Shown here: in pieces, positions 5,759-30,795 of the stretch | How the letters are laid out: each line of letters starts with the position of its first letter | Position numbering within the stretch: position 1 is the first letter of the stretch | Origin: Candidatus Multivoradales bacterium | GTDB taxonomy: Bacteria > Acidobacteriota > Thermoanaerobaculia > Multivoradales > JAHEKO01 | Assembly: GCA_965248055.1 (NCBI GenBank) | Contig: CBDFIJ010000004.1 | Span: 64,001 to 128,000, forward strand | Length of the DNA stretch: 64,000 nt | Reading direction: 5' to 3' | Program-made: the position numbers and the translations under genes | The notes under the pieces: model-generated | Database searches by the model: none | Told to the model about the DNA's origin: nothing | The model's input: only the letters and a program-made list of their open reading frames with translations

Positions 5759-6573
5759 GCTGCCTTGCCCTCTAACTCGGCGACTGCCCGGCGCACGTGA
5801 TGAACGCTGATTTCACGCTCTCCGTCGGCGTATCCGGCCAACAGGCTCTTATCGCACACCGCATTGATCAACCTCGGCACACCGCGAGAGTAACGGTAAA
5901 TGCGATGGAACGCCCAGCGAGAGAAGGTCGGCGGTTCGGCGGCTCCAGCAACTTGCAAGCGGTGGGCTATGTAGCGTTCGGTTTCACTGCGATTCAAGGG
6001 CGGCAAGTGAAAGCGCACGGTGATCCGTTGGCGCAACTGACGGAGATCCTTGCGCTCGAGGCGATCTCGCAGCTCGGGTTGACCAATCAACAAGATCTGC
6101 AACAGTTTGACTTGATCGGTCTCGAGGTTGGAGAGCAAACGGACCTGTTCCAGCAATTCCGGCGTCAGATCCTGCGCTTCATCGATAATCAAGGCGACAT
6201 CGCGTCCTGCCGACAGTTCGCTGAGCAGAAAGTCGTTCAATCGTTTGAGCGCTTGCGCCCGATTGTTGTACGGAACCGGAATACCGAATTCGACCAGAAT
6301 CGCAGCGAGTAACTGGGTAGCAGTCAATGTCGGATTGAGCACCAGAGCGGTGGTGTATTCATCTCCCAGACGCTCTAGAAAGGCCCGACACAGCGTGGTC
6401 TTTCCGGCTCCCACCTCGCCGGTAATCTGAATAAATCCTTTGCGTTCTTGAACACCATAGAGCATATGGTTGAGCGCCTCGCGGTGACGCTCGCTGTAGT
6501 AGAGAAAACGAGGGTCTGGCGTGATGTTAAACGGCGCTTCGCGGAATTGGTAGAAGTCGAGATACATGGTCAA
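5755..6573 (-). CDS. ExeA/GspA-family AAA ATPase
   Basis: MYLDFYQFREAPFNITPDPRF, Walker A GEVGAGKT, IIDEAQ, LIGQPEL, GVPRLIN. Confidence 0.9.
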   Translation of the reverse strand: MTMYLDFYQFREAPFNITPDPRFLYYSERHREALNHMLYGVQERKGFIQITGEVGAGKTTLCRAFLERLGDEYTTALVLNPTLTATQLLAAILVEFGIPVPYNNRAQALKRLNDFLLSELSAGRDVALIIDEAQDLTPELLEQVRLLSNLETDQVKLLQILLIGQPELRDRLERKDLRQLRQRITVRFHLPPLNRSETERYIAHRLQVAGAAEPPTFSRWAFHRIYRYSRGVPRLINAVCDKSLLAGYADGEREISVHHVRRAVAELEGKAA

Positions 6574-6641
6574 TCAGTAATTCTAGGGCTGCGGAGTGCC
6601 ATCTTGCATCGTCATTCAGTGTAGCCTAGCCGACGCCAGTT

Positions 6642-6657
6642 TGGCGTGAATCCTGCA
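6642..6657 (+). promoter_or_regulatory. Possible sigma-54 promoter
   Basis: TGGCGTGAATCCTGCA has GG-N10-GC spacing upstream of the beta-barrel gene. Confidence 0.3.
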
Positions 6658-6742
6658 GCCTATTGTCTAGCGTGCAAGGTTGGTGCAACCAGTGTTTCTC
6701 GAAAGCCTTTTTGAGCAATTGTCATCCTCCGGGAGGTCCCCA

Positions 6743-7285
6743 ATGAATCGCCGTTCATTCAAGTTGGTCATGGTCTTTGCGCTCTTGGGTTTAGCCATGG
6801 CGTTGCCCGGAGCGCTGCAAGCGGGTGAGAGAACCGTTGGCGGTGGCATTCACTACTGGAAGAGCTTCGACAACATTCTGGGGCTCAATGACATTGAAGA
6901 CGATGGCTATTCTTTGATGGCCTCATACCAGATTCGACCCGAGGGGTTGTTTTCGTTCGAATTCGATTTGGAGTATTTCGACAACGGTTTTGGCGGCGCT
7001 AGTAACTCCGCTCTGTCACCGCAAGCTCTGGTTTTGTTTGGCCATGGACTGTACGGCGGGGTCGGGATTGGTGTCACCATTGCCAATGATCTGAGCGACA
7101 ATATTTCTGACCCGTTCTACATCGCGCGCGGGGGCTATGAGTTTTCGGTCTTGCCGCACTTAAGTATCGATCTACACGCCAGCTATCGCAGCGACGCGTT
7201 TTCCGATCTGAGCGATATCGATAGCGATGCGATCACGCTGGGAGCCATGGCCCGTTTTCGCCTGGGTCAACGCAACAAACCCTAG
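6743..7285 (+). CDS. Small outer-membrane beta-barrel protein
   Basis: Signal peptide, alternating Gly/aromatic strands, GGAGG RBS. Confidence 0.65.
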   Translation: MNRRSFKLVMVFALLGLAMALPGALQAGERTVGGGIHYWKSFDNILGLNDIEDDGYSLMASYQIRPEGLFSFEFDLEYFDNGFGGASNSALSPQALVLFGHGLYGGVGIGVTIANDLSDNISDPFYIARGGYEFSVLPHLSIDLHASYRSDAFSDLSDIDSDAITLGAMARFRLGQRNKP

Positions 7286-7391
7286 TTTTCGACAGGCGCT
7301 AAACCGCCCCACAAAGGACCTATTTGGGGCCCCGGATTATGGGCTATGATCGGCGACCCAGAACTCTCTCCAGAACTGCCGCTCCAGAATC

Positions 7392-8747
7392 ATGGCTCAA
7401 CCGTTCGCTGCACCCACCACCAATCCGTTTTCCAATGAGTCCGAAAGGGCGGTTTTGGGAGCGGTGTTGTTGGCGCCCGAGGAGTTGCCGATGGTCAGCG
7501 GGCGACTGCACGCAGAAGATTTCTACTCGGAGCGCCACAGCAACATCTATGCGGCGATGTTGCAGATCCAAGAGCAGGGCATGGAGATCGATATCAGAAC
7601 CCTGCAGGCCAAATTAGAACAATTGGGCCAGTTTCAAGCGGTCGGCGGACTGGCCTACCTCACAGGATTGGACGTTGACCTGCCCGATGTCGCTCGGGTT
7701 GAAGAATACGTCGAGATCGTCAAAGAGCGTTCGCTGCGCCGAAGGTTGATTGCCGCCTGCGTCAGCATTACCCGCGATTGCCAAGACGGCGGGTTGGAAG
7801 CAGAGGAAGCACTAGGAAAAGCTGAGCAGGCGATTTTGTCGATCGGCGAGGAAGCGATTCAGCGCGGCTTCATTTCCTTGGGAACCTTGATCGATACCCA
7901 CTTACCGGAGATTGAAGACCACGATGGCAGTGATCTGGCGGGACTGGGAACCGGCTTCGTTCAAGTTGATGAAACCATTGGCGGCCTCCAAGCGGGCAAC
8001 CTGATCATCATCGCCGGTCGGCCGGGCATGGGAAAGACCAGTATTGCGCTCAACATGGCCCAGCACGTGGCGATTCGTGAGCAAAAGGCGGTGGCGATTT
8101 TTTCGCTGGAGATGAGTGGCAAAGACTTGATGACGCGGATTTTGTCTTCCGAGGCCAATCTTTCTGGAAAGGGGGTGCGTTCCGGACATCTCTCGCATGG
8201 CGACTGGCAAACCTTGCATCTACACGCCGATCAACTGCGGCCAGCTCCAATCCACATTGATGACACGGCGAGCCTCTCGCTACTGGAACTGGCTTCAAAA
8301 GCCAGACGAGCTAAAGCGGAGAAGGGGGTCGAGCTGGTGATCCTCGACTACTTGCAGTTGATGAGCGCCGGGGGTCGATACGAGAATCGAAACACCGAGA
8401 TTGCCGCGATTACCCGACATTTGAAGCAACTGGCCAAGGAGCTGGAGATCCCGGTAATGGCACTGTCTCAACTCTCCAGGCAACCCGAGCGTCGTGGCGG
8501 AGATCATCGCCCCCAACTTGCCGACCTGCGGGAGTCGGGATCCATCGAACAGGACGCCGACATCGTCGCTTTCGTATTTCGGGAAGAGATCTACAAACCG
8601 GACGATCCGTCTCTACGCGGATTGGCTGAGCTCATCTTGGCCAAGAACCGGCACGGAGAGACTAAGAATCTACCTTTGGTGTTCCTGGGCAAGAACACCA
8701 CCTTCAAGTCCCGCGCTCACCAAGATCACGAGCCGCCGCCTTTCTGA
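7392..8747 (+). CDS. dnaB: Replicative DNA helicase DnaB
   Basis: ESERAVLG, GRPGMGKT, ILDYLQLM, LSQLSR, DLRESGSIEQDAD, KNRHG. Confidence 0.97.
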   Translation: MAQPFAAPTTNPFSNESERAVLGAVLLAPEELPMVSGRLHAEDFYSERHSNIYAAMLQIQEQGMEIDIRTLQAKLEQLGQFQAVGGLAYLTGLDVDLPDVARVEEYVEIVKERSLRRRLIAACVSITRDCQDGGLEAEEALGKAEQAILSIGEEAIQRGFISLGTLIDTHLPEIEDHDGSDLAGLGTGFVQVDETIGGLQAGNLIIIAGRPGMGKTSIALNMAQHVAIREQKAVAIFSLEMSGKDLMTRILSSEANLSGKGVRSGHLSHGDWQTLHLHADQLRPAPIHIDDTASLSLLELASKARRAKAEKGVELVILDYLQLMSAGGRYENRNTEIAAITRHLKQLAKELEIPVMALSQLSRQPERRGGDHRPQLADLRESGSIEQDADIVAFVFREEIYKPDDPSLRGLAELILAKNRHGETKNLPLVFLGKNTTFKSRAHQDHEPPPF

Positions 8748-9910: not shown

Positions 9911-10804
9911 CTAGAGCTTCGGTTCACCTCCAGTCAATCGACGGAAGGCCTCCAGGTAACGCTCTCGGGTTTCTCCAACCACTTCGTCAGGCAGCTTGGG
10001 CGGAGGAGGTTCATGATCCCAACCACTGGAGTCGAGCCAGTTGCGGACAAACTGCTTGTCCACCGAGACCGGCTCGGCGCCCATCTGCCACTGGCTGGCT
10101 TCCCAATAGCGCGAGGAATCCGGGGTTAGTACTTCGTCAATCAGGTGGATTTTGCCGTCGATCCAACCGAACTCGAACTTGGTGTCGGCGAGAATCAGTC
10201 CAGCCTCCCGGGCAGCCTCTGCACCCTGACGATAGAGCTCCATGGTCAAGGTCCGCAGTTTGGCGCTGACTTCGCTACCCAGTGCTTGTTCCATCACCGC
10301 GTAGCTGATGTTCTCGTCGTGCCCGGTTTCGGCCTTGGTGGCCGGGGTGAAAATCGGCTCCGGTAGCGGTGCCGCCAACTCAAGACCCGCGGGGAGTGAG
10401 ATACCGCAGACTGTCTGATTTGACCGATACTCACGATAGCCGCTGCCAGCCAAGTAGCCTCGGGCGACACATTCAAAGGGAATCACTTCCGCTCGACGGA
10501 CCCAGGCAGAGCGGCCAGCCAGTTGGTCACGCACCGCGTGGAATCGATCGGGGAAGTCTTCCACTTCGGTGGCCACCAGATGATTGGGCACCACCTCGGC
10601 TACTTTGGCAAACCAGAAGTTAGTGAGTTGGTGAAGGATCTTCCCTTTGTCAGGAATCGGCGGATCCAAAACGCTGTCGTAGGCGGAAATCCGGTCGCTG
10701 GCGACCAACAAAAGGTGGTCTTCAAAGTCGTAGATATCCCGTACTTTTCCCTGCCGTGGAGTGGGGAAATCAGCGCCGAGTCCGGTCGAGTTGGGGTGAT
10801 GCAT
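9911..10804 (-). CDS. purC: SAICAR synthetase
   Basis: GKVRDIY, SDRISAYD, ADTKFEFG, DEVLTPDSSRYW, DKQFVR. Confidence 0.97.
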   Translation of the reverse strand: MHHPNSTGLGADFPTPRQGKVRDIYDFEDHLLLVASDRISAYDSVLDPPIPDKGKILHQLTNFWFAKVAEVVPNHLVATEVEDFPDRFHAVRDQLAGRSAWVRRAEVIPFECVARGYLAGSGYREYRSNQTVCGISLPAGLELAAPLPEPIFTPATKAETGHDENISYAVMEQALGSEVSAKLRTLTMELYRQGAEAAREAGLILADTKFEFGWIDGKIHLIDEVLTPDSSRYWEASQWQMGAEPVSVDKQFVRNWLDSSGWDHEPPPPKLPDEVVGETRERYLEAFRRLTGGEPKL

Positions 10805-10836
10805 CGGCGAATTCTAGCCGAGTCCAGAGGAAAAAA

Positions 10837-12768
10837 TTAGTGCCAAATCGGTTCTGGCAGCCAGGGAAATTGGGCTTGATCAACTGCCTCAAAAACTGTG
10901 TCTTCTCCCCAGTCTTGGCGGTCCACCACTTCGAAGACCTCGATTGGCGCCAATCCCTTAAATTCTGCAAAACCGCGGTGTGAAACTCCAACTTCGAGCT
11001 GGCTTTCAGTATCTCTAGATAGGTCCATGACCAAGAACTCGCGGCTGGAGTCCTGAAACCGACCAACGCCTCCACGGTGTAAAGCGATCAGACGGGCAAG
11101 AAACTGGGCGGTGATGACGATGCCCTCGTTGACCAGGGTTCCATTGGGATTGACATAGGCCCAGAAGCGTCGGGTTTCGGTCGCTTCGTCCACCAAATTG
11201 ATTTGTCGCTGCTCGAAGCGGGAAAAAAAGCGATTGACTTCGCGCCGTTGGTATCCGGCACCTACCAGCAATTTCTTGACCTCCTGCAGGTTGCGGCTGA
11301 CCTTGCCAGAGACCAGTCGGGATATCTCGACAATGCCTGGACCAAACAATTGCCCGTCGAGTTCCCGCCCTGCGGGTGCTGAGGCGACCAAACGGTAGGC
11401 ACCCCAGTTGGCGGCCAACCGCATTCCCCCTGAAAACACCATGCCTTGATCCACTGCGTGACGGTAGGCGCGCTGGATCTCGACGGCAACAGCAAGCACC
11501 GTCCGCGCCGATCGATTAGAGGAAAAGAGCACTCCGTCGCCGAAGTGTTTTTCCATCACCATGCCATTGCGCCGCGCCGCAGCTTGTACTCGTCGTTGAA
11601 AAAAGAAGAACTTGCGCAACGCAGTTTCTCGATCGGCGGTCGGCAGCACCTCGAGCGATGCCATGATCGAAGAGAAGTTGGTGATGTCGTAGCGCAAACC
11701 AAAACGCTGCACGGTGAGTCCTGCTGATTCGCCCGAGAAGATCGACATCGGTCTTTGTTCTGCGGCAAAATGTACCGGTTTTGCCCCTGGTCGTGGCGCA
11801 GTATCCACCCAACCCTGCTGATCGCGTTCGACGACGAATACCTGCCGTCGGTTTTCGTCCAGGATGTCGAACTGGCGCAGGCGGCGATGCAGCTCTTCCC
11901 ACACCGCCGCTTCTTGGAGACTGGGAGCACCTTCACCTCCGTTGTCGGCGAAACGCGCCAAGACACCCGGCCAGTCGGCCTCAAGCGATCCCTCTCCGGC
12001 CAGCTCCAAGTGGTCTCGCAACCACTCTGGAGTGGTCAACACCATGGAACGCAAGGCATTTTCAGCACTTCGCATGCGTTCAAGGAATTGCTCTCCAGGA
12101 AGGCCCCAGAGAGACTCGGCGTAGCCACCGAGTTGCCAGATGGTTGGTTTTTCGGCGTGGGCGAAGATCAATACATTGTCACGAAGCAGGGTTAGCAGAT
12201 GGGGAAAGACCTCGACCTCTGCTTCAAAGCTATGCATCGCGACTTCTGCTGCCGCGCTCGCGGTCCAGTGCCAGATACTCCCGGCGTAGCTGCGCACGGA
12301 GCTATAGATCACGGCCGGGTCCACCGCATCACGATCGGTTACGCCGAGCACTTCGGCAATGAGCTCAGGTAGCAAGGTCGCGACCGACAGTGAGTTGTGT
12401 AGGCAAAACACCGCAGGTAGGGAGTCGTTGCCAGCTAGCAGCAACCCTCGAATGGTGTTGCGGTACATATTCTCGAAGTGCTTCTGCCGCTTTTCGCTCT
12501 GATCCGGGAACACATCCACGAGACCTGCGGTGTTGCGCACTGTGACTTCAAGAAATCCCCGCAATGCGGCCTGAAACGCCATCCGCCGGGGAGTGCTCTC
12601 CACTGTGAACCCGTGTACAGAGGAGCCGCTCGGTTCGGCAAATTCCAAGATACGCGGTTGAGGAAGGGCGATCGATGGCGCGATCATAGGAGCCAGGTGG
12701 CCGGGGACGGCCTCTCTCCGGCTCGAGGAAGTCGTCAGATTGTCTGCGGATAATCTTTGCCTGCGCAT
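10837..12768 (-). CDS. Hypothetical protein with divergent class III nucleotidyl cyclase-like C-terminal domain (start uncertain, 12768 or 12687)
   Basis: RYDITNFS, EKHFGDGVLF, GMRLAANWG, FGPGIVEISRL, RGFAEFKG match the cyclase motif order. Confidence 0.55.
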   Translation of the reverse strand: MRRQRLSADNLTTSSSRREAVPGHLAPMIAPSIALPQPRILEFAEPSGSSVHGFTVESTPRRMAFQAALRGFLEVTVRNTAGLVDVFPDQSEKRQKHFENMYRNTIRGLLLAGNDSLPAVFCLHNSLSVATLLPELIAEVLGVTDRDAVDPAVIYSSVRSYAGSIWHWTASAAAEVAMHSFEAEVEVFPHLLTLLRDNVLIFAHAEKPTIWQLGGYAESLWGLPGEQFLERMRSAENALRSMVLTTPEWLRDHLELAGEGSLEADWPGVLARFADNGGEGAPSLQEAAVWEELHRRLRQFDILDENRRQVFVVERDQQGWVDTAPRPGAKPVHFAAEQRPMSIFSGESAGLTVQRFGLRYDITNFSSIMASLEVLPTADRETALRKFFFFQRRVQAAARRNGMVMEKHFGDGVLFSSNRSARTVLAVAVEIQRAYRHAVDQGMVFSGGMRLAANWGAYRLVASAPAGRELDGQLFGPGIVEISRLVSGKVSRNLQEVKKLLVGAGYQRREVNRFFSRFEQRQINLVDEATETRRFWAYVNPNGTLVNEGIVITAQFLARLIALHRGGVGRFQDSSREFLVMDLSRDTESQLEVGVSHRGFAEFKGLAPIEVFEVVDRQDWGEDTVFEAVDQAQFPWLPEPIWH

Positions 12769-22135: not shown

Positions 22136-22252
22136 ACGGAAGCAACCCCTGGCGCTCGCCTGCTTGTGTCATTAGCAGGTCAGCGTTACCCTGACGTTAA
22201 CGATCCGCACTCAGCCGCTGCCACCGGCTTGAGTCAAAACAGGGAGCTGAGA

Positions 22253-23962
22253 ATGAAGAACTACAAATGGAGTCTTGGTCGTTTTGCGATCGGCGCACTG
22301 GTTTTGTCGCTGCTGTTGGCTGGGGCGCCAGCCGAAGGCCAGATCCATGACCCGAGGGCGATTGATTCCGATCCAGCTACCGCTCAGGAACCCATCGCCC
22401 CGAAACTGGGGGGTTTGAGTGATTACCACTTCGAGGTCACCACCTCGAACCCGGAGTCACAAGCTTTCTTTGACCAAGGTTTGCGTCTGACCTATGGCTT
22501 CAATCATTCCGAAGCTCTGCGAGCGTTCAAAGAAGCGATTCGGCTTGACCCCAACAACGCCATGGCCCACTGGGGTTGGGCGCTGGCTTTAGGACCCAAC
22601 CTCAACTTGCCGATGATGCCGGACGTCGTGCCCCAAGCGCTGGACGCGATGCAACGGGCTCAGAACTTGGCGTCTGGAGTGAGTGATCAAGAACGCGACT
22701 TCATCGCCGCTTTGGCGACTCGCTATACCGACGACCCCGAAGCCGACCGATCGAGTTTCGATCAGGCCTACGCATCGGCGATGGAGAAGTTGTTCGCAAA
22801 GTATCCAGACAGTGCTGACGCCGGAACCCTTTACGGGGCCGCAATCATGAATACCACTCCGTGGAACTACTGGAATCGAGACGGCAGCCCTAAGCCCGCT
22901 GCCGAGCGCATGTTGCAGGTATTTGAACAGGTACTTCAACTCAACCCCGATCATCCCGGAGCTTTGCACTATTGGATCCACGCGGTCGAGGCGGTGCATC
23001 CGAAACGGGCGGTGGAAGCCGCCGACCGCCTTCTTCCTTTGATGCCGGGTATCGGTCACATGGTGCACATGCCCTCGCACATCTACATGCGGGTCGGCCG
23101 CTATGCAGACGCCTACGACGCCAACTTTGCCGCAGTCGAGGCCGACGAGGACTACATCACCCAGTGCCGAGCCCAGGGCATGTATCCACTTAACTACTAC
23201 CCGCACAACCAGCACTTCCTAGCTTGGGCGGCGATGTTCCAAGGTCGCAAGGAGGAAGCGATGAAAGCCTCCAGAGCGGTCGCCAACGGCATCCCCAACG
23301 CGTCGACGAATGAGGGGCGCGGTGCAGTTTGGAACCTCTATGAGACCTTCCGCAGCCAACCGATGTACACCATGGGCCGCTTCGGTATGTGGCAGGAAGC
23401 TCTTCGTGAGCCCGCCCCCGAAGCTAGCGCCCTGTTCATGAATGGCGTTTGGCGATACGTGCGTTCGTTGGCGCATACTCACACTGGCAACCTGCGCAAA
23501 GCGCGCAAAGAACTCAAATACTTGCGCCAACTGCAGTCCCAGGTAGCAGCGCACCCGGATTACACCATCGGCTTTGGTTCCGCCACCACCATGCTCACCA
23601 TCGCCTCCGAAATCGCCGCTGGCGAGATTGCCGCGGCCAAAGGCGACTACACCGAAGCCTTGGCCCACCTGGAAACCGGCGTTCGTCTGGAAGACAGTTT
23701 GCTCTACAACGAACCCCCCGACTGGTATTTCCCGGTGCGCCACATCCTCGGCGCCGTACTTCTCGAAGCCGGCCGAGCCACCGAAGCCGAAGTCATCTAC
23801 TGGGCCGATCTGGCCAAGAATCCTGAGAACGGCTTCGCACTGTTTGGACTGGAAAGGGCCCTCAGAGCGCAGGGGAAAACCGATCTTGCTGACCAGACAG
23901 CAGAACGCTTCACGATAGCTTGGGCAAGCGCGGATGGAGCACTCAAGTCTTCGCGCTATTGA
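22253..23962 (+). CDS. Secreted TPR-repeat protein
   Basis: Signal peptide, QAFFDQGL..YGFNH.EA, HPGALHYWIHAVE, GHMVHMPSHIY, YNEPPDWY. Confidence 0.8.
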   Translation: MKNYKWSLGRFAIGALVLSLLLAGAPAEGQIHDPRAIDSDPATAQEPIAPKLGGLSDYHFEVTTSNPESQAFFDQGLRLTYGFNHSEALRAFKEAIRLDPNNAMAHWGWALALGPNLNLPMMPDVVPQALDAMQRAQNLASGVSDQERDFIAALATRYTDDPEADRSSFDQAYASAMEKLFAKYPDSADAGTLYGAAIMNTTPWNYWNRDGSPKPAAERMLQVFEQVLQLNPDHPGALHYWIHAVEAVHPKRAVEAADRLLPLMPGIGHMVHMPSHIYMRVGRYADAYDANFAAVEADEDYITQCRAQGMYPLNYYPHNQHFLAWAAMFQGRKEEAMKASRAVANGIPNASTNEGRGAVWNLYETFRSQPMYTMGRFGMWQEALREPAPEASALFMNGVWRYVRSLAHTHTGNLRKARKELKYLRQLQSQVAAHPDYTIGFGSATTMLTIASEIAAGEIAAAKGDYTEALAHLETGVRLEDSLLYNEPPDWYFPVRHILGAVLLEAGRATEAEVIYWADLAKNPENGFALFGLERALRAQGKTDLADQTAERFTIAWASADGALKSSRY

Positions 23963-24094
23963 CCGCCTGTCGGTATCCGCACGAACGGTAATCTCTTTCC
24001 TCGGATCTTCGTAGGAGGGGCTTGTCCCCTCCCGAATTCGTAGGGACTAGAGTTCGCCTGTTGGAAATTCGTATCCTGTCACCGTATTTTTTCC
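23719..24094 (+). repeat. Copy 1 (native) of TPR-gene 3' end plus downstream region
   Basis: Aligns with 25712-26089 and 27902-28175; ends CCTGTCACCGTATTTT. Confidence 0.95.
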
Positions 24095-24242
24095 TCTTCT
24101 CGAAGCTATTCACGGAAAACTCTTCGACTGGGTGCTCTGGCTTAACGCCGAAAGGCCCCACTGGAGCCACGGACAAAAATCACCACTACAGTACGTAGAT
24201 GACATACCGATCAGTGCATATGTCCTGGACGCATATATTGAG

Positions 24243-24271
24243 TTGACAGGTTTAACGCCAACACATAGCCT
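24243..24271 (+). promoter_or_regulatory. Sigma-70-like promoter of the fic gene
   Basis: TTGACA-17 bp-TAGCCT. Confidence 0.5.
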
Positions 24272-24322
24272 TATTTTGGCAGAAACTATGACGACCAACA
24301 TGACCATCTTAAGCGTAGTGCT

Positions 24323-25483
24323 TTGAGGCGAGCCGTGACGAACCAATACCCGCACATAAGTTTTCGACGCACCTGGGGCTTGCCAGCAGGCGTTCACTAC
24401 CAGCTGGGAGAGTGCAGAGGGATCAACCGCGCGATCTCTGGAATGCCGATTCCCCCTCTTTATCACAGAGAACTTCTTCGGGTGTCCTTGCGAAAAGGTG
24501 CCATAGCCACAACAGCGATTGAGGGTAATAGCCTCACCGAGGGCGAGGTCAAGCGAATCGAAAGAGGTGAATCGCTCCCTCCAAGCAAGGCTTATCAGGA
24601 AAAGGAAGTAAAAAATGTTCTCGGTGCAATGAACATATTGTTCAATGAAGTGGTCGGCGAGAGACTAGGAGCCCCAATCACAGCCGACGTCATTCGCCGG
24701 TTCCACCACCTGTTAGGAAAAGACCTTGGTAAGCACTTTGACGCCATTCCAGGGAGATGGCGAGAAGATGCTCGGGTGGTGGGCTCATATCGATGTCCTG
24801 ACCATCGCATGGTGCCCAACTTAATCGATCAACTTTGTCAATGGCTACCAGAGTTTGGATACGGGTCCGAACAGCAGTCCTTCGAAGACGCTGTTATTCA
24901 AGCCGTCGTAACCCATGTATACATTGAATGGATACATCCATTTGGCGACGGAAACGGGAGAACTGGTCGCCTCCTTGAGTTTTACATTCTTTTGCGTGCT
25001 GGCAACCCCGACATCTCGTCCCATATTCTTTCAAATTTCTATAACGAAACCCGACCAGAATACTACCGACAAATAGGGCATGCATCGAGGAATGGAGGAG
25101 ACCTCACTGACTTCATTACCTATGCAGTCCAAGGCTTTAGAGACGGCCTGCTGGAAACGCTAGCGACAATTCAAGCCAGTGTCTTTGCAACGTCCTGGAA
25201 GAGCTATATCTATGACATGTTTGCAGGTGAGAAATACCGCAAAGATATATTCAAGAGGCGACGAGAACTTGCTTTGAATATGCCTCTCAATGGAGAACTT
25301 GCTGCTGAACAACTGGCTATTCTCACATCAAACCTCGCGCGCCGATACGCGAGGGTGACGGAGCGAACTCTAAAGCGAGATCTGTCTGCACTTGTTTCGC
25401 TTGGCCTAGTAGTAAAGTCCAAGGGTAAATATCGCGCAAATATTGCCGCACTGGAACCGAACCTACCGAAACAGCTCGACTAG
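24323..25483 (+). CDS. Fic family protein with C-terminal HTH-like region
   Basis: Canonical HPFGDGNGRTGR; N-terminal TTAIEGN inhibitory motif. Confidence 0.9.
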   Translation: MRRAVTNQYPHISFRRTWGLPAGVHYQLGECRGINRAISGMPIPPLYHRELLRVSLRKGAIATTAIEGNSLTEGEVKRIERGESLPPSKAYQEKEVKNVLGAMNILFNEVVGERLGAPITADVIRRFHHLLGKDLGKHFDAIPGRWREDARVVGSYRCPDHRMVPNLIDQLCQWLPEFGYGSEQQSFEDAVIQAVVTHVYIEWIHPFGDGNGRTGRLLEFYILLRAGNPDISSHILSNFYNETRPEYYRQIGHASRNGGDLTDFITYAVQGFRDGLLETLATIQASVFATSWKSYIYDMFAGEKYRKDIFKRRRELALNMPLNGELAAEQLAILTSNLARRYARVTERTLKRDLSALVSLGLVVKSKGKYRANIAALEPNLPKQLD

Positions 25484-25674
25484 CTGACGCGAAGAATGAC
25501 TTATCAGATTCCTCTTGCCCTGTCGTGAGGGTGACTGAGCATCACTACGCTAATAAGCGGGTGCAGCATTAGCTCCTTGGTTTCAATTGCGAAGTAAACG
25601 CTGTTTTGGGGAGTCGCTCGAAAGTTGATGACGTGCAACCTGCCACCCCCGGCTCCCCACACAACCTCTAAGGG

Positions 25675-25706
25675 ATGGGGACACAATAAAAGGATTGTGT
25701 CCCCAT
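25675..25706. repeat. Perfect 13-bp-stem palindrome at a cassette junction
   Basis: ATGGGGACACAAT-AAAAGG-ATTGTGTCCCCAT. Confidence 0.9.
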
Positions 25707-25711
25707 TTTCT

Positions 25712-26089
25712 CGACTGGTACTTCCCGGTGCGCCACATTCTCGGCGCGGTGCTATGTGAAGCCGGCCGAGCCATCGAAGCCGAAGTCATCTACTGGGCCG
25801 ACCTAGCCAAGAATCCGGGGAATGGTTTCGCGTTGTCTTGACTAGAAAAGGCTCTCAGAGCGCAGTGGAAAACCGATCTTGCTGACCAGACGGCAGAACG
25901 CTTCGCGGATGCCTGGGCGGATGCCGATGGTGCCCTCAAGTCTTCGCGCTATTGACCGCCTGTCGGTAACCACACGAGCGGTAATCTCTTTCCTCGGATC
26001 TTCATAAGGGAGGGGCTTGTTCCCTCCCGAATTCATAGGGACTAGAGTTCGCCTGTTTGAAATCCGTATCCTGTCACCGCATTTTTTCC
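25712..26089 (+). pseudogene. Copy 2: displaced, decayed TPR-gene 3' end plus downstream region
   Basis: DWYFPVRHILG...KSSRY frame with internal TGA at 25839-25841; ends CCTGTCACCGCATTTT. Confidence 0.92.
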
Positions 26090-26238
26090 AGGCGCGTCGA
26101 TTTGGCGCTATGGAACTCCTACCATCAGAAGCTAGGCTATACTTACCTGAACCAGCAGTAGCGACTAGCTTTTTGGTGGCGAGCGAGGGATCGAGCGTCG
26201 GGGCTACCAACGGGTAAGGGCAATAAGGAGAATCGACC

Positions 26239-27807
26239 ATGCCAAGCGCACCGAGTGACCTAAGAGCAGATTTGCCGAGCCGAGCAAGAGGTGGTGTCGA
26301 CATGTCCGCTTGGACGCCGTCGTACGCAGGCTATCCTGGCGCGGTCATTAAGCAGTTCTTTGTCAACAAGGATGGTGAAACCAAGACGCGCACCATCAAG
26401 CACCTCATCTGGGGCGACTGGATGTTAGTCGGGACTAAGAAAAAGGGTGGTCTGGTTGAAGCCTACTCGCGCGGCAAACGCGGTTTTGTAGATCCCGCCA
26501 GCGTCACCAATGAACGTGTGCTTGAAGTGGTTTTCGTAGATATCGGCCAAGGGGATGGCTGCCTCGTCGTAACCCCGAACGACGAACACCTGGTTATCGA
26601 CGCCGGCGAGCACGACAACATGTACCGTTTCCTAAATTGGCGCTACGGACGTTTCAAGAACGATTTCGAATTCGACGCGCTCTTTGTCACACACCCAGAT
26701 CAGGACCACTACAAGGGCTTTAAGGAATTCTTCGATCTAACGGCGCACCCAGATGCCAAGCGAATTAAGTTCACGAATGTGTATCACAACGGAATCGTCG
26801 AACGAAAAGCCAAGCACTCGCTCGGTCCGAGGGTCAAGATTGACGGTAAGTCACACATCAAGGGGCTGGTTCAGACTGACGGCGATCTCGACGACTTCCT
26901 TTCCGTTGAATCGCGTTGGAAGGGCAAGAACTATCCGACATTGCTTAACAGCATGGTGCAGAGCGACAGGGTCGGCAACATCCGCTCGCTCTCCGCTGAA
27001 GACGGTTTCGTCCCTGGTTTTGAAGGCGGAAAAGACCTCTCGATTGAGGTTCTCGGTCCAGTTCTCACTCGGCACAATGGTGAGCCTTCGCTCCGATGGC
27101 TGTCGAGCGTCGGCAAGACCAAGAACGGCCATTCGGTGGTACTCAAACTCCAGTACAAGAACATCAGCATGATGCTGGGCGGGGACCTCAACATCCCGGC
27201 CGAACATCTGCTGCTTGCACATCACACCGGCCTAGAATCTCCTCCCAAGAGTGAAGAACACAAGACTCTAGTAGCAGCAGCGCGTAAGGTCTTCCAAGTT
27301 GATATCGCCAAAGCCTGCCACCACGGCAGCGCTGACTTCACCAGTATCTTTCTCGAAGCCCTCAACCCGATCGCAACGGTTATTTCTAGCGGGGACGACG
27401 AGTCCCACGCACATCCAAGGGCGGAGACGCTGGGGACAATCGGTCTCTTCTCGCGCGGCTCCCGCCCACTCATCTTCAGCACCGAGCTTGCCCGCTCGAC
27501 CAAAGAGCGCATCAAACATCCCTCAGTCGTTCGCGGCAAATTCACCGCAGCCAAGGACAGGCTCCTTGAGCTGCACGCCGACCCGAACGCCAAACAAAAA
27601 GACATCGACAAGGCCGAGCAACAGTTCAAAAAACTGGTCACGGAAATCGAACGTAGCGTCGCCGTCTACGGCGCAATCAACGTGCGCACAGATGGGCACA
27701 AAGTCCTCTTTGCGCAAAAAATCGAGCGAGGCTCTGGATGGGACACCTACCGGCTAGAGCCGCAGGGTAGCAATGAGGTTCTTGAGTACGTCGCCAAGCA
27801 CCACTAG
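26239..27807 (+). CDS. MBL-fold metallo-hydrolase (ComEC/Rec2-like), alternative start 26302
   Basis: FVDIGQGD, IDAG, THPDQDHYKG, NGHSVV, LGGDL, KACHHGS, HAHP. Confidence 0.85.
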   Translation: MPSAPSDLRADLPSRARGGVDMSAWTPSYAGYPGAVIKQFFVNKDGETKTRTIKHLIWGDWMLVGTKKKGGLVEAYSRGKRGFVDPASVTNERVLEVVFVDIGQGDGCLVVTPNDEHLVIDAGEHDNMYRFLNWRYGRFKNDFEFDALFVTHPDQDHYKGFKEFFDLTAHPDAKRIKFTNVYHNGIVERKAKHSLGPRVKIDGKSHIKGLVQTDGDLDDFLSVESRWKGKNYPTLLNSMVQSDRVGNIRSLSAEDGFVPGFEGGKDLSIEVLGPVLTRHNGEPSLRWLSSVGKTKNGHSVVLKLQYKNISMMLGGDLNIPAEHLLLAHHTGLESPPKSEEHKTLVAAARKVFQVDIAKACHHGSADFTSIFLEALNPIATVISSGDDESHAHPRAETLGTIGLFSRGSRPLIFSTELARSTKERIKHPSVVRGKFTAAKDRLLELHADPNAKQKDIDKAEQQFKKLVTEIERSVAVYGAINVRTDGHKVLFAQKIERGSGWDTYRLEPQGSNEVLEYVAKHH

Positions 27808-27901
27808 GCAAAAAGCCTAGCGGTGGTTGTGAACGTGGGACTTGCACCGCGCTCAAATTAGCAACCAATGGAGGCAAAAGAAAAATGAGAGCAGTATCGA
27901 C

Positions 27902-28175
27902 AATCCTCACAATCGCTTCGCACCGTTTGGACTGGAACAGGCCTCAGAGCGCAGAGGGAAAACCGATCTTGCTGACCAGACAGCAGAACGCTTCGCGGTA
28001 GCTTGGGCCGACGCCGATAGAGCCCTGCATTCTTCGCGCTATTGACCGCCTGTCGGTCACCACACGAACGGTAATCTCTTTCCTCGAATTTTCGTAGGAG
28101 GGGCTTGTCCCCTCCCAGATCCATAGTGACTAGATTCCGCCTGTTTGAAATTCGTATCCTGTCACCGTATTTTTC
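27902..28175 (+). pseudogene. Copy 3: shorter displaced TPR-gene 3' end plus downstream region
   Basis: GKTDLADQTAERF...SSRY with small indels upstream; ends CCTGTCACCGTATTTT. Confidence 0.92.
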
Positions 28176-28274
28176 TCTCACTGACCGATTTTCCGCTTCG
28201 GTGGCACACGCAGATCAAGAGAGATCGAACGATCAACTCTACCTGTAGACTACTGATCCGCAGGGAGGTATTAC

Positions 28275-29564
28275 ATGCAGCTAGAACAGTTCTCGATTAG
28301 CGGACTTTTTGGAGGCAAGAATCATGAAATTGCATTTCCAATTCCGAATGAAGCTGACGCGGAACCCTCGCTTCTGATTATCCACGGTAAGAATGGGGTC
28401 GGAAAAACCACAATCCTACGGATGATTGCCGGATTAATGCGGCTGGATTTCGACTCGTTCCGTGATGTTCCGTTCGAGTCGGCCTCCCTAAGGTTCACCT
28501 CAGGTCAGACGATCTCTGTCAAGTTGCGCGAAAGAGGGAGGGGGAGAAAGCGTGCATTAAGTGTTGCATTTGACGAAATGAGTGTAGACCTTCATTCGAA
28601 GCACCATGGAGCGGCTGATGAAGGTGATACGGATCTGGTTAACACATTCCGAAAACAGTTCTTCGAAGCTACAAGCGCTATCAGTTTCGAATTTATCAAT
28701 ACACGCCGAGTTCGCGAACGATTCGAACGGAGTCAAGACTCCACTGATGTCTTGCGGGACGGCGTCGATCCCCGACTGTTGACTAGTCGGCACGGGCTTC
28801 GACTCCGAGCGCGTGGTTTAGTACACAGAGAGGAGGCAGCGCCGGAAAAGAAACTTGCTCTTCGCGTGAAGCGCTTCGTGCGAGATGCTCAAGTCGACTA
28901 CCGAGAATATTTTTCGACCACAGCCCCCGACCTTTTTCCGCGAATCCTGGAGCGCCTCGCTTCAACCGAAGAAGCGAATATCCAGCCACAGGATTTGCGC
29001 GAGCGGCTCGACCATATCCGTCGGCAAGACGAGGAGACATCACGGCTCGGACTTGGTCCTGACAAATGGGACTATGATCAACTCATTAGTCAACTAAACG
29101 ACTTGAGTAAGTCGCGACGTAAAGGACGGCTACAGGCGCTTGCAGCCCTCGACACCTACTCAGAATTCTTGGAATCGAGAGCTGCAGAAAGAAAACTGGT
29201 TGCGGATCGACTCCTTACGTTCGAGAAGCTAGTGTCGGAATTTTTTGTCGATAAGAGCGTGACCGTTGATCCAGCCGAAGGTTTGGTGATCACCGCAGAC
29301 TCAGGGGCACCCCTCACCGAACACCAACTCAGTTCTGGCGAGTTTCACTTGCTCTTCTTGATGGTGGCTGCCCTCAAGACCCGACGGCTTGGCACGGTGG
29401 TAGCTATCGACGAGCCTGAGATGTCGATGCACGTGGCTTGGCAGACGAAACTTGTACCTGCGCTCATAGAGTGTGCGTCAGGAGCTGAACCTTTGTTTAT
29501 CTTCGCCACACACTCACCAGATCTTGCGGCAGAATTTCCCGACGCAATGATCGATTTGAATTGA
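28275..29564 (+). CDS. ABC-type (AAA_15/AAA_21-like) ATPase, AriA-like
   Basis: Walker A GKNGVGKT, signature LSSGE, Walker B AIDEPE, FATHS. Confidence 0.85.
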   Translation: MQLEQFSISGLFGGKNHEIAFPIPNEADAEPSLLIIHGKNGVGKTTILRMIAGLMRLDFDSFRDVPFESASLRFTSGQTISVKLRERGRGRKRALSVAFDEMSVDLHSKHHGAADEGDTDLVNTFRKQFFEATSAISFEFINTRRVRERFERSQDSTDVLRDGVDPRLLTSRHGLRLRARGLVHREEAAPEKKLALRVKRFVRDAQVDYREYFSTTAPDLFPRILERLASTEEANIQPQDLRERLDHIRRQDEETSRLGLGPDKWDYDQLISQLNDLSKSRRKGRLQALAALDTYSEFLESRAAERKLVADRLLTFEKLVSEFFVDKSVTVDPAEGLVITADSGAPLTEHQLSSGEFHLLFLMVAALKTRRLGTVVAIDEPEMSMHVAWQTKLVPALIECASGAEPLFIFATHSPDLAAEFPDAMIDLN

Positions 29565-29577
29565 AGAGTTCTCTCGC

Positions 29578-30411
29578 ATGATCAGACGAGCGCCGCAAGC
29601 GATTATCATGGCGCATCGTATGGATTCGGATAGAAGAGTTGTTTACGTGGAAGGCTCTCACGATGCCGCTTTCCTCAAGTGGCTAGTTGGGGCTCGGAAA
29701 CACCCTGACGCGCAGATTCGCGAGATTGGAACTGTGAAACTCGACGACGTGGGCGATGGCGGAGAACGCGGACGGCTTATTGGATTCGCTACTCTCTTGT
29801 CGGTGGCGAATTGCGCCAGAATTAGGTGTTTTGCGGATGCGGACTTTGATCGTTTGCTGAAACGAGAATGTCCGAAGTCTGTGTGGCTGACGGATGGACG
29901 AGATCTCGAAGGCTACGTGCTCAGAAACGAGTGCGTCGAAAAAGTGCTACTACTAGGTATTGGCCAGCATGCGGTTTCCGCCCGAGACATATTGAACGAT
30001 GTCCTCACGGTCGGCCGTCGGGTCGGAATCCTCCGAGTGGTCTCTGAGGTGGATGAACTCGCGCTACCCTTCGCGCGAACCAAACTCCAGCGTCACCTCA
30101 CTATGTCGCAAGGGCGAGTCAACTTCGCGCTGGAACCCTTTCTGCAAGCCCTACTTCAAAACGCTGGGACGAGCCTAGCAATGAAGAATAGAGTCCTGAA
30201 GAGAGTCGCAGAAGTCGCTGACGATTTAGTTGACGTGCCGGATATCCAGATTATCCACGGCAAAGATGCATTCTGCCTCATTGAAAAAGCGCTATCTCAA
30301 TTTGGGATAAGAAGGGGGGCAGAGGTGGGCAAGATGCTGTGGAGTAGCTTCGAGTCGCGATTTGTTGAGCGGGGATCGAATCTCGACCAAGTGCAAAGTT
30401 TCTTGGGCTGA
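29578..30411 (+). CDS. DUF4435/TOPRIM-like putative nuclease, AriB-like
   Basis: VYVEGSHD, ADADFD, RDLEGY, HGKD; directly follows the ATPase. Confidence 0.75.
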   Translation: MIRRAPQAIIMAHRMDSDRRVVYVEGSHDAAFLKWLVGARKHPDAQIREIGTVKLDDVGDGGERGRLIGFATLLSVANCARIRCFADADFDRLLKRECPKSVWLTDGRDLEGYVLRNECVEKVLLLGIGQHAVSARDILNDVLTVGRRVGILRVVSEVDELALPFARTKLQRHLTMSQGRVNFALEPFLQALLQNAGTSLAMKNRVLKRVAEVADDLVDVPDIQIIHGKDAFCLIEKALSQFGIRRGAEVGKMLWSSFESRFVERGSNLDQVQSFLG

Positions 30412-30709
30412 CCGCTCTGAACGGCAGGTCAAGACGATCCCTGGTAGCGAGAAGTCGAACGACTTCCACAGCCCATGTGGAACACCCAGCCCACTGCGAC
30501 TCGTTTGACTTTTGGGGAGTCGCTCTAGAGCAGTCGGCTAGCCTACTCGACGGCCCAATAGCTGTGTTGATTGATGTTTTAGGGGAGCCGGGGCAGGCTA
30601 CCGAGGCCCCCCCCTCCCAATAGCGGAGCAAATGATGTTTTTGGGGGAGTCGCTCCAACGCCGATGGCTATGCCATCGGCATCGACCGACGACCTCATTC
30701 GGCACCGAA

Positions 30710-30795
30710 TGGTGCCGGAGGGGGGAGTCGAACCCCCACACCCTTGCGGATAACGGATTTTGAGTCCGTCGCGTCTACCGTTCCGCCACTCCGGC
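30710..30795 (-). tRNA. tRNA-Leu (CAA)
   Basis: GCCGGAGTGGCGGAACGGTAGACGCGACGGACTCAAAATCCGT...GTTCGACTCCCCCCTCCGGCACCA; long variable arm, encoded CCA. Confidence 0.97.

Follow-up and report, generated by a model that had tools for sequence, protein, structure and literature searches.

Three cassettes of probable defence genes behind REP-bounded copies of a gene end, between a TPR gene and tRNA-Leu in a Candidatus Multivoradales genome

Layout of the array

The stretch of DNA analyzed here, called the window, comprises 64,000 nucleotides (G000:C4:64001-128000) of a 3.4-Mb genome from a soil bacterium assigned to Candidatus Multivoradales, the genome under study (G000). Three probable anti-phage cassettes lie in this window as an array between a housekeeping gene, which codes for a tetratricopeptide repeat (TPR) protein, and a tRNA gene. 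The order is TPR gene, R1, fic, R2, a gene for a hydrolase of the metallo-β-lactamase (MBL) fold, R3, a gene for an ATPase with a DUF4435-like partner gene, and tRNA-Leu. The three R copies are direct repeats whose source is the 3′ end of the TPR gene. All features described below are on the plus strand except for the tRNA gene. The TPR gene (22166..23962) is an intact open reading frame (ORF) of 598 amino acids with matches to Pfam TPR families and, judged by Pfam matches and neighbors, the final gene of an HlyD-ABC-MacB-TPR cluster. Orthologues are present in 36 of 41 relatives; that of G001, the only same-genus genome (98% complete), shows 77% amino acid identity.

R1 (23719..24097) consists of the last 81 TPR codons and ∼132 bp of downstream DNA and is still joined to the gene. 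R2 (25712..26092) is a displaced TPR 3′ end, with one TGA and small indels, that carries the same downstream stretch, while R3 (27898..28177, start approximate) is the shortest and most decayed copy. A repeat search returned a 300-nt family (at 23719, 25712, and 27802) and an 81-nt family (at 24014, 26009, and 28097) in register with each other, and a three-way alignment joins both into one direct repeat. R2 is full length and 88% identical to R1; R3 reaches 88% over the shared 273 nt. All three matches to R in the whole genome are inside the array, and an exact 25-mer of R had no match in public metagenome contigs.

The copies share their right end. The motif CCTGTCACCG(T/C)ATTTT occurs at 24075, 26070, and 28158, that is, three times in the window compared with 0.05 expected, and none of 100 shuffles reached three. 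In all three copies the similarity stops 8–12 nt past the CCG of this motif, in the tail of what we identify below as an arm of a repetitive extragenic palindromic (REP) element, and unrelated cargo follows, with starting positions that agree to within ∼4 nt. On the left, the copies are ragged: the first position of R2 (25712) is equivalent to 23719, and that of R3 (∼27898) to ∼23815–23819. Common right end, unrelated cargo, and ragged left ends had all been noted in a preliminary description of this locus, and the alignment and the genome-wide search confirm them. The REP arm of R1 (GTATCCTGTCACCGTAT, 24071..24087) is followed by a T-rich tail that forms the right end of the repeat; the arms in R2 and R3 are located at 26066–26082 and 28154–28170, respectively.

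An rve-type insertion sequence (IS), truncated to its 3′ end (24098..24235, 138 nt), directly abuts the REP tail of R1. It is 84–87% identical to 11 resident copies, which have a median identity of 98.6% among themselves over the same last 138 nt, so that the divergence of the fragment is about that seen between the R copies. On C4, at least 11 near-identical copies of this IS were found (e.g., 943242–943380, 2349390–2349528, and 3172902–3173041), and the family appears to be actively expanded. An absence of integrase, transposase, and reverse transcriptase genes from the array, as claimed earlier, holds for intact genes only, given this fragment; none of the seven Phage_integrase matches of the genome is in the window.

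The first cargo gene (24323..25483) encodes a SoFic-like Fic-domain protein of 386 amino acids (Pfam Fic, E 4.7e-17; PADLOC SoFic, 196 bits over positions 34–349 of 361), which scores 49.7 bits against the NCBIfam SoFic equivalog model with its cut-off of 550. At the right end of this cassette lies x′ (25585..25640), a copy of the tRNA-proximal flank with the core TTTGGGGAGTCGCTC at 25605. A hairpin followed by a T-run (25677..25709), terminator-like by eye and not listed by a promoter scan, stands just before the ragged start of R2. The second cargo gene (26239..27807) encodes an MBL-fold hydrolase of 522 amino acids (Pfam Lactamase_B) with weak N-terminal matches to MBL models of the LmuA/Avs1a type. 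The third cassette contains two genes. The first (28275..29564) codes for a 429-amino-acid ATPase, AAA_21 by Pfam and AriA/PtuA-like by PADLOC, where the AriA models give 74 and 70 bits. Its 277-amino-acid partner (29578..30411) has no Pfam or PADLOC match and is DUF4435-like by language-model features only, a feature search leading to DUF4435 clusters with a score of 0.95, which is a lead only. The PARIS system (AriA-AriB) pairs an AriA ATPase with a DUF4435/Toprim protein, AriB; in cargo 3, the ATPase has AriA-like scores, whereas the likeness of the partner rests on these features. The GC content of the cargo is 0.48–0.55, compared with 0.58–0.62 in the flanks.

Two more copies of the tRNA-proximal flank, x1 and x2 (30511..30670, cores at 30511 and 30641), follow this cassette. 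The tRNA-Leu(CAA) gene itself (30710..30795, minus strand) faces the array with its 3′ end and marks the right border of the variable interval. A 15-mer of the x core has three matches in the genome, one of them with a single mismatch, and all are in the array; the native counterpart of x is found beside tRNA-Leu in G001. The fic unit thus holds fragments of both flanks, R on its left and x′ on its right, which implies that it once filled the whole interval from the TPR gene to the tRNA gene in some genome. A copy of x likewise closes the ATPase unit. No REP is present on the cargo side of the x′-R2 and MBL-R3 junctions, so any model needs an illegitimate or homologous join, or a point of circle closure, at these two positions.

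The genome is an assembly of the metagenome type, in which three strain variants of one hotspot could in principle be chained in tandem, and repeats of 280–380 nt do break independently built contigs. Against this, contigs assembled independently from four runs, all of one sample that may be the source sample of the assembly, together tile the array with no differences: single contigs cross the junctions fic-x′ to R2, R2 to MBL, and MBL to R3, and abutting pieces cover the part from R1 to fic. Sequencing depth was equal for cassettes and flanks in the four runs (X1: 45/44/40 versus 48/42). We therefore consider an assembly artefact, which the preliminary description had named as a way to refute it, extremely improbable; this is a real and unusual locus. 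The contigs contain no reliable cassette-skipping or circular joint, the lone joint from 23221 to 25713 being unreliable (one contig, depth 2, 27 nt on the shorter side). Loose contig ends at 26082 and 28176 belong to the other REP loci of the genome.

The REP-type repeat at the edge of the R copies and its cognate RAYT

The shared right end of R is the outer edge of one arm of a REP family with the sequence GTATCCTGTCACCG. Genome-wide, GTATCCTGTCACCG(T/C)AT has 20 matches at up to three mismatches, compared with four to seven in three shuffles. There are few copies (14 at up to two mismatches), and 18 of the 20 matches are concentrated at three loci: the array, C4:1102.6-1110 kb (L040), and C4:2167-2171 kb (L041). 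Each of the three holds DNA without a match in G001. Outside the array, the REPs mostly form inverted pairs 21–52 nt apart, for example in L040 and L041, and such doublets, which fold as strong hairpins (z −4.7 and −6.9), also occur in 12 of 43 public loci. The tail of R carries a single arm, which folds no better than shuffled sequences (z −0.85). The motif was found in 17 of 24 same-family genomes, where it also forms tandem clusters of the same orientation in relatives; a reversed-pattern control had no match in any of the 41 genomes searched. G001 has no match to the motif either. An unpublished genome, G002, was counted in these REP-motif tallies only.

In four genomes, inverted arms of the REP flank a gene for a REP-associated tyrosine transposase (RAYT), a Y1/HUH enzyme: at L041 in G000 and at L069, L051, and L139. 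The RAYT homologues of L069 and L051, both from public records, are 44–53% identical to the G000 gene, and at L139 a Y1_Tnp gene is flanked by inverted REP copies. The G000 gene (L041 8348-8936 = G000:C4:2170347-2170935) is located 2.08 Mb from the array and contains one frameshift near L041 8586-8590. Its two halves score 28.4 and 42.1 bits against the NCBIfam model REP_Tyr_transpos, whose cut-off of 80 applies to the whole protein, and Pfam Y1_Tnp gives 23.9 bits. The translation shows an HUH motif (HVH) and a C-terminal helix bearing a tyrosine, and the gene is the sole member of its clade in this genome. Twelve other Y1_Tnp matches were observed on C4, mostly in ORFs of ∼310 amino acids.

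Taken together, the boundary motif is a REP-type repeat with a cognate RAYT. It has most features of REP/REPIN-RAYT systems, but not the tag-plus-palindrome form, since the unit starts with GTAT instead of a GTAG or CGTC tag and the single arm is no palindrome. A motif-defined boundary had been postulated from the letters of the array, and a search for Y1 or RAYT genes flanked by the motif had been proposed as a check; both were found. The prediction of a trans-acting Y1/HUH enzyme fared less evenly: a cognate RAYT of the guessed class exists in the genome, but its gene is frameshifted, and a part of the RAYT in making the junctions is hypothetical.

Two further observations concern the sequence of R. 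The REP arm of R3 and its flank (28145–28173, with equivalents in R1 and R2) can be read as a σ70-like promoter (TTGAAA-17-TATTTT) directed toward the cargo. A promoter scan of the region gave one match, inside the R3 REP, compared with 3.3 expected, and hence provides no evidence for it. R also contains a GTAG-tagged hairpin (GGAGGGGCTTGTCCCCTCC, 24014..24032 in R1), which belongs to a second repeat family (GGAGGGG-N5-CCCCTCC) with 25 matches in the genome at up to three mismatches. These are located at 24014–24032, 26009–26027, and 28097–28115 of the window and at 22 other places on C4; one of the 25 is part of a cluster at C4:1031 kb, which additionally contains look-alike hairpins.

DNA is also cut or duplicated at REP edges outside the array. 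An IS30-like fragment ends at a REP in L041, in L141 a copy of a Y1-transposase gene breaks off at a REP doublet, and duplicated flanks that end at REP tails surround cargo at the RAYT loci L041 (151 nt, 99% identity) and L051 (373 nt, 99.7%). These few cases suggest that REP edges are preferred breakpoints. Nicking by a RAYT, short homology between REPs, or a structure-induced break are possible causes, and the cases do not tell them apart; an edge of the R copies defined by a nick at the REP is plausible. The check for motif enrichment at accessory-gene borders, proposed earlier, had a suggestive outcome based on few events: 18 of the 20 matches come from three loci, and all three contain DNA unmatched in G001. 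Self-comparison of ∼485 kb of REP-bearing loci from relatives revealed duplicated flanks beside REPs, but host-gene ends stacked with cargo did not turn up again.

These REP loci show some further details. In L041 (5200-9035; G000:C4:2167199-2171034), the 151-nt direct repeat, made of the last 17 RAYT codons and a REP doublet, brackets a 3.5-kb unit with an unknown gene of 415 amino acids, a Gp49/HigB-like and HTH_37 gene pair, the cut IS30-like fragment, and the RAYT gene; the right REP and the predicted start codon of a gene for a PF03601 membrane protein overlap. L040 (4647-11975; G000:C4:1102.6-1110 kb) contains four REP doublets, one degenerate pair, and one single arm amid DNA that is partly missing from the syntenic region of G001. 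This DNA includes ORFs of 199 and 138 amino acids, a PQQ-propeller fragment, and an element of the IS256 family whose inverted ends measure 25 nt. In L137 of G024 (C13), a 1.4-kb element is present in two inverted copies, 99.6% identical to each other (6265-7658 and 10377-11771), that lie directly against REP doublets. IS256-family transposases adjoin REPs in both L137 and L040, which hints at REP-targeted IS insertion.

Origin of the displaced gene ends and their cargo

The three R copies are roughly equidistant, with 13, 22, and 22 private differences in the shared part for R1, R2, and R3, respectively. Of the 30 coding substitutions between R1 and R2, 19 affect third codon positions (p 7e-4), and 23 of all 36 differences between them are synonymous, compared with a fraction of ∼0.37 expected for drift in place (p 0.001). 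When changes are polarized with G001, the R2 lineage has 19, of which 12 are synonymous, versus a fraction of 0.24–0.30 under neutrality (p 0.003 against 0.30). R2 has evolved like an allele of the TPR gene. Judged by these codons, it appears to have spent most of its divergence within a working gene, under purifying selection, and the synonymous bias argues that R2 is an imported allele, or one displaced by an import, rather than the product of drift in place. The copies also form a decay gradient: R1 is intact, R2 has acquired one TGA, and R3 is shorter, contains indels, and shows no codon bias, a state that fits an older displacement. The substitution pattern of a once-functional allele and the decay from R1 via R2 to R3 speak for the serial addition of cargo together with donor flank that the preliminary description had postulated.

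Gene order around the interval is kept in G001 (MacB-TPR-tRNA-Leu-CarD-PriA). Between the TPR gene and tRNA-Leu, this genome has 1.65 kb of unrelated DNA without a REP, and homology does not extend beyond the TPR stop codon. At L034 14690-15620, the interval contains what by eye is a frameshifted gene for an NAD-binding dehydrogenase and, on the opposite strand, an ORF of 179 amino acids, which indicates that the interval is in flux there too. The tRNA-Leu/CarD/PriA neighborhood is absent from four more distant relatives (G005, G012, G024, and G019), so only G001 is informative, and this single relative in the collections searched is the main limit of all readings discussed here. A second C-terminal TPR fragment was found at none of 111 orthologue loci, many of which are short; one locus with multiple matches represents a frameshifted gene. 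Beside TPR orthologues, only weak matches to the REP with two mismatches were detected, at 3 of 115 loci, none of them adjoining the gene end.

Based on these observations, we propose that the array arose by serial, homology-anchored import of an allelic gene end together with its REP and cargo, each import displacing the older ends, at a hotspot bounded by REPs. We would give this proposal about an even chance of being correct. The interval between the TPR gene and tRNA-Leu would be a hotspot of gene flux, filled from lineages ∼12% diverged, and each incoming piece would bring its own TPR 3′ end, the downstream DNA with the REP, and a cargo gene unlike those of the other pieces. The donor fragment would start inside the TPR gene and end past the cargo. 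Its left end would be joined by homology within the TPR gene and its right end illegitimately within the 3′ end of the recipient gene, as in homology-facilitated illegitimate recombination; alternatively, a circularized fragment might integrate by a single crossover in R (Campbell-type integration), which would yield the same product. In either case, the incomer would supply the working gene end, and the old end with its cargo would be shifted downstream with a ragged left edge. The newest unit would then be nearest to the gene, and repetition would generate the observed order and the gradient of decay. The shared right end would be the place where allele homology stops and where foreign or truncated DNA was repeatedly joined.

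Several points weigh against this proposal. Ordinary recombination explains neither the coincidence of the three cargo starts within ∼4 nt nor the IS cut in its middle. Among 262 relatives of the TPR protein in metagenome contigs, the best has 63% amino acid identity, and no donor genome or closer relative was found. The MBL unit has no copy of the right flank. Moreover, import is deduced from substitution patterns in only 81 codons, and the differences between the R copies are unevenly spread: some blocks are fully identical, even at synonymous sites. In a 55-nt coding block (23857–23911), only two sites vary among R1, R2, and R3, compared with about a dozen between G001 and R1. Gene conversion or exchange, or a constraint at the DNA level, must therefore have acted and could distort the codon statistics.

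A different view takes up the REP directly. Units consisting of cargo, R, and REP could be cut and pasted in single-stranded form by a Y1/HUH transposase, with the REP tail serving both as target and as right end, so that each insertion regenerates its target and the array lengthens as an integron does, although no integrase takes part. The identity of the motif as a REP family with a cognate RAYT and the clustering of its matches at three loci favor this, as do the units at RAYT loci of two genomes that extend from REP tail to REP tail with a duplicated upstream flank; tandem REP clusters of the same orientation in relatives fit insertion beside REP tails. According to Corneloup 2021 (PMC8266576), RAYTs cut between C and T beside REPs and join the free 3′-OH, and the REP tails here are indeed T-rich with CT steps. 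Known RAYTs, however, recognize hairpins, which the unfolded lone arm in R does not provide, and the RAYT of G000 is frameshifted. Such capture cannot make the x′-R2 and MBL-R3 joints and does not predict the working-gene evolution of R2; no other such array was encountered in the ∼485 kb of REP loci from relatives, MBL homologues had no REP nearby at any of seven loci in relatives (up to two mismatches), and the contigs offer no reliable trace of cassette loss or circles. Overall, we regard capture by a RAYT as unlikely.

Tandem integrative islands would account for the same geometry in another way, if each had targeted the TPR 3′ end or tRNA-Leu, brought a replacement gene end, and later lost its integrase and most of its genes. 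Serial integration with varying crossover points, as in tRNA and tmRNA islands, characteristically leaves units that share one end and start at different positions. The array is on the 3′ side of tRNA-Leu, and defence cargo is typical of such islands, as stated in PMC12595487. We nevertheless give little credence to decayed islands: neither an integrase nor a remnant of one exists in the array or the window, no tRNA-fragment att repeat was detected at a 12-nt seed, the units are only ∼2 kb with one or two genes, and homology continues beyond the gene end, 132 bp past the stop codon, up to the REP. The lack of second fragments at the 111 TPR loci, short as many of them are, also indicates that this gene is not a common integration target. 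The chance that R2 and R3 were instead copied from R1 in place, within the present lineage, e.g., through template switching after nicking at the REP, and then diverged where they sit seems slim to us as well. Flanks duplicated almost identically beside REPs in L041 and L051 do show that such duplications exist, and the blocks of perfect identity among the R copies suggest exchange. Yet a synonymous and third-position bias is unexpected for a dead fragment such as R2, and the x′ copy and the diverged IS fragment suggest that an entire interval was imported.

Comparison with known systems

The locus keeps the scars of three successive additions, and the order and type of the events can still be read from it. 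Most small bacterial defence islets have no recombinase. If the homology-anchored route applies, the array would be a case of natural additive import in which older defence genes are kept rather than replaced. REP/RAYT systems, in turn, would acquire a part in gene flux if joints form preferentially at REP edges.

REP/REPIN-RAYT systems, or REPtrons, are the topic of Nunvar 2010 (PMC2817692) and Bertels and Rainey 2011 (PMC3116915). The family described here shares with such systems a short extragenic repeat, doublets that form hairpins, presence in most genomes of the family, and an inverted arrangement around a Y1/HUH gene that is the single member of its clade. It differs in its low copy number, the GTAT start, and the non-palindromic single arm, and furthermore in that lone arms end fragments of a host gene, with cargo or truncated ISs abutting the tail of the arm. 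In the consulted parts of the REP/RAYT literature, no role in the acquisition of genes or cargo is described. Loper 2012 (PMC3390384) places mobile elements in REP-poor regions, or REP deserts, and speaks of REPs only as sites at which recombination has been proposed. REP-RAYT pairs have so far been regarded as domesticated, spreading only their own short repeats. A pair that acts as a platform for gene capture and stacks defence cassettes together with pieces of a host gene, as a single-strand HUH analogue of an integron, is a possibility that we rate as doubtful.

The integron-like platform of the preliminary description survives as an analogy only. Integron arrays also consist of mostly single-gene units in the same orientation, linked by a recurring sequence, and the R3 repeat has a promoter-like match. 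In contrast to integrons, neither an IntI nor a folded site of the attC type is present here, and the recurring sequence is a fragment of a host gene.

Tandem islands, such as those at tRNA or tmRNA genes and the arrays of tycheposons (10.1101/2020.12.28.424599), leave displaced 3′ fragments of their target gene. Islands of this kind resemble our locus in a common end with different starts, the newest element beside the intact gene, and accessory or defence cargo. The locus differs from them in that the array lacks an integrase and an att core, targets a protein-coding gene, extends its homology to the REP 132 bp past the stop codon, and is built of ∼2-kb units. The locus is also similar to the orphan toxin-tip and immunity arrays downstream of rhs and cdiA, in which incoming ends displace older ones that then accumulate downstream, each with its partner gene. 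What varies in those arrays is the C-terminal tip of the gene itself, whereas our locus has a conserved gene end and cargo made up of separate genes.

Homology-facilitated illegitimate and Campbell-type integration in natural transformation are known from single events in the laboratory. To our knowledge, no natural array of three such steps with a common edge defined by a repeat has been described, although we made no dedicated search for one. As proposed for the array, one homologous anchor and one illegitimate joint add DNA beside a conserved gene, and this kind of integration predicts ragged joints and a gene end derived from the donor.

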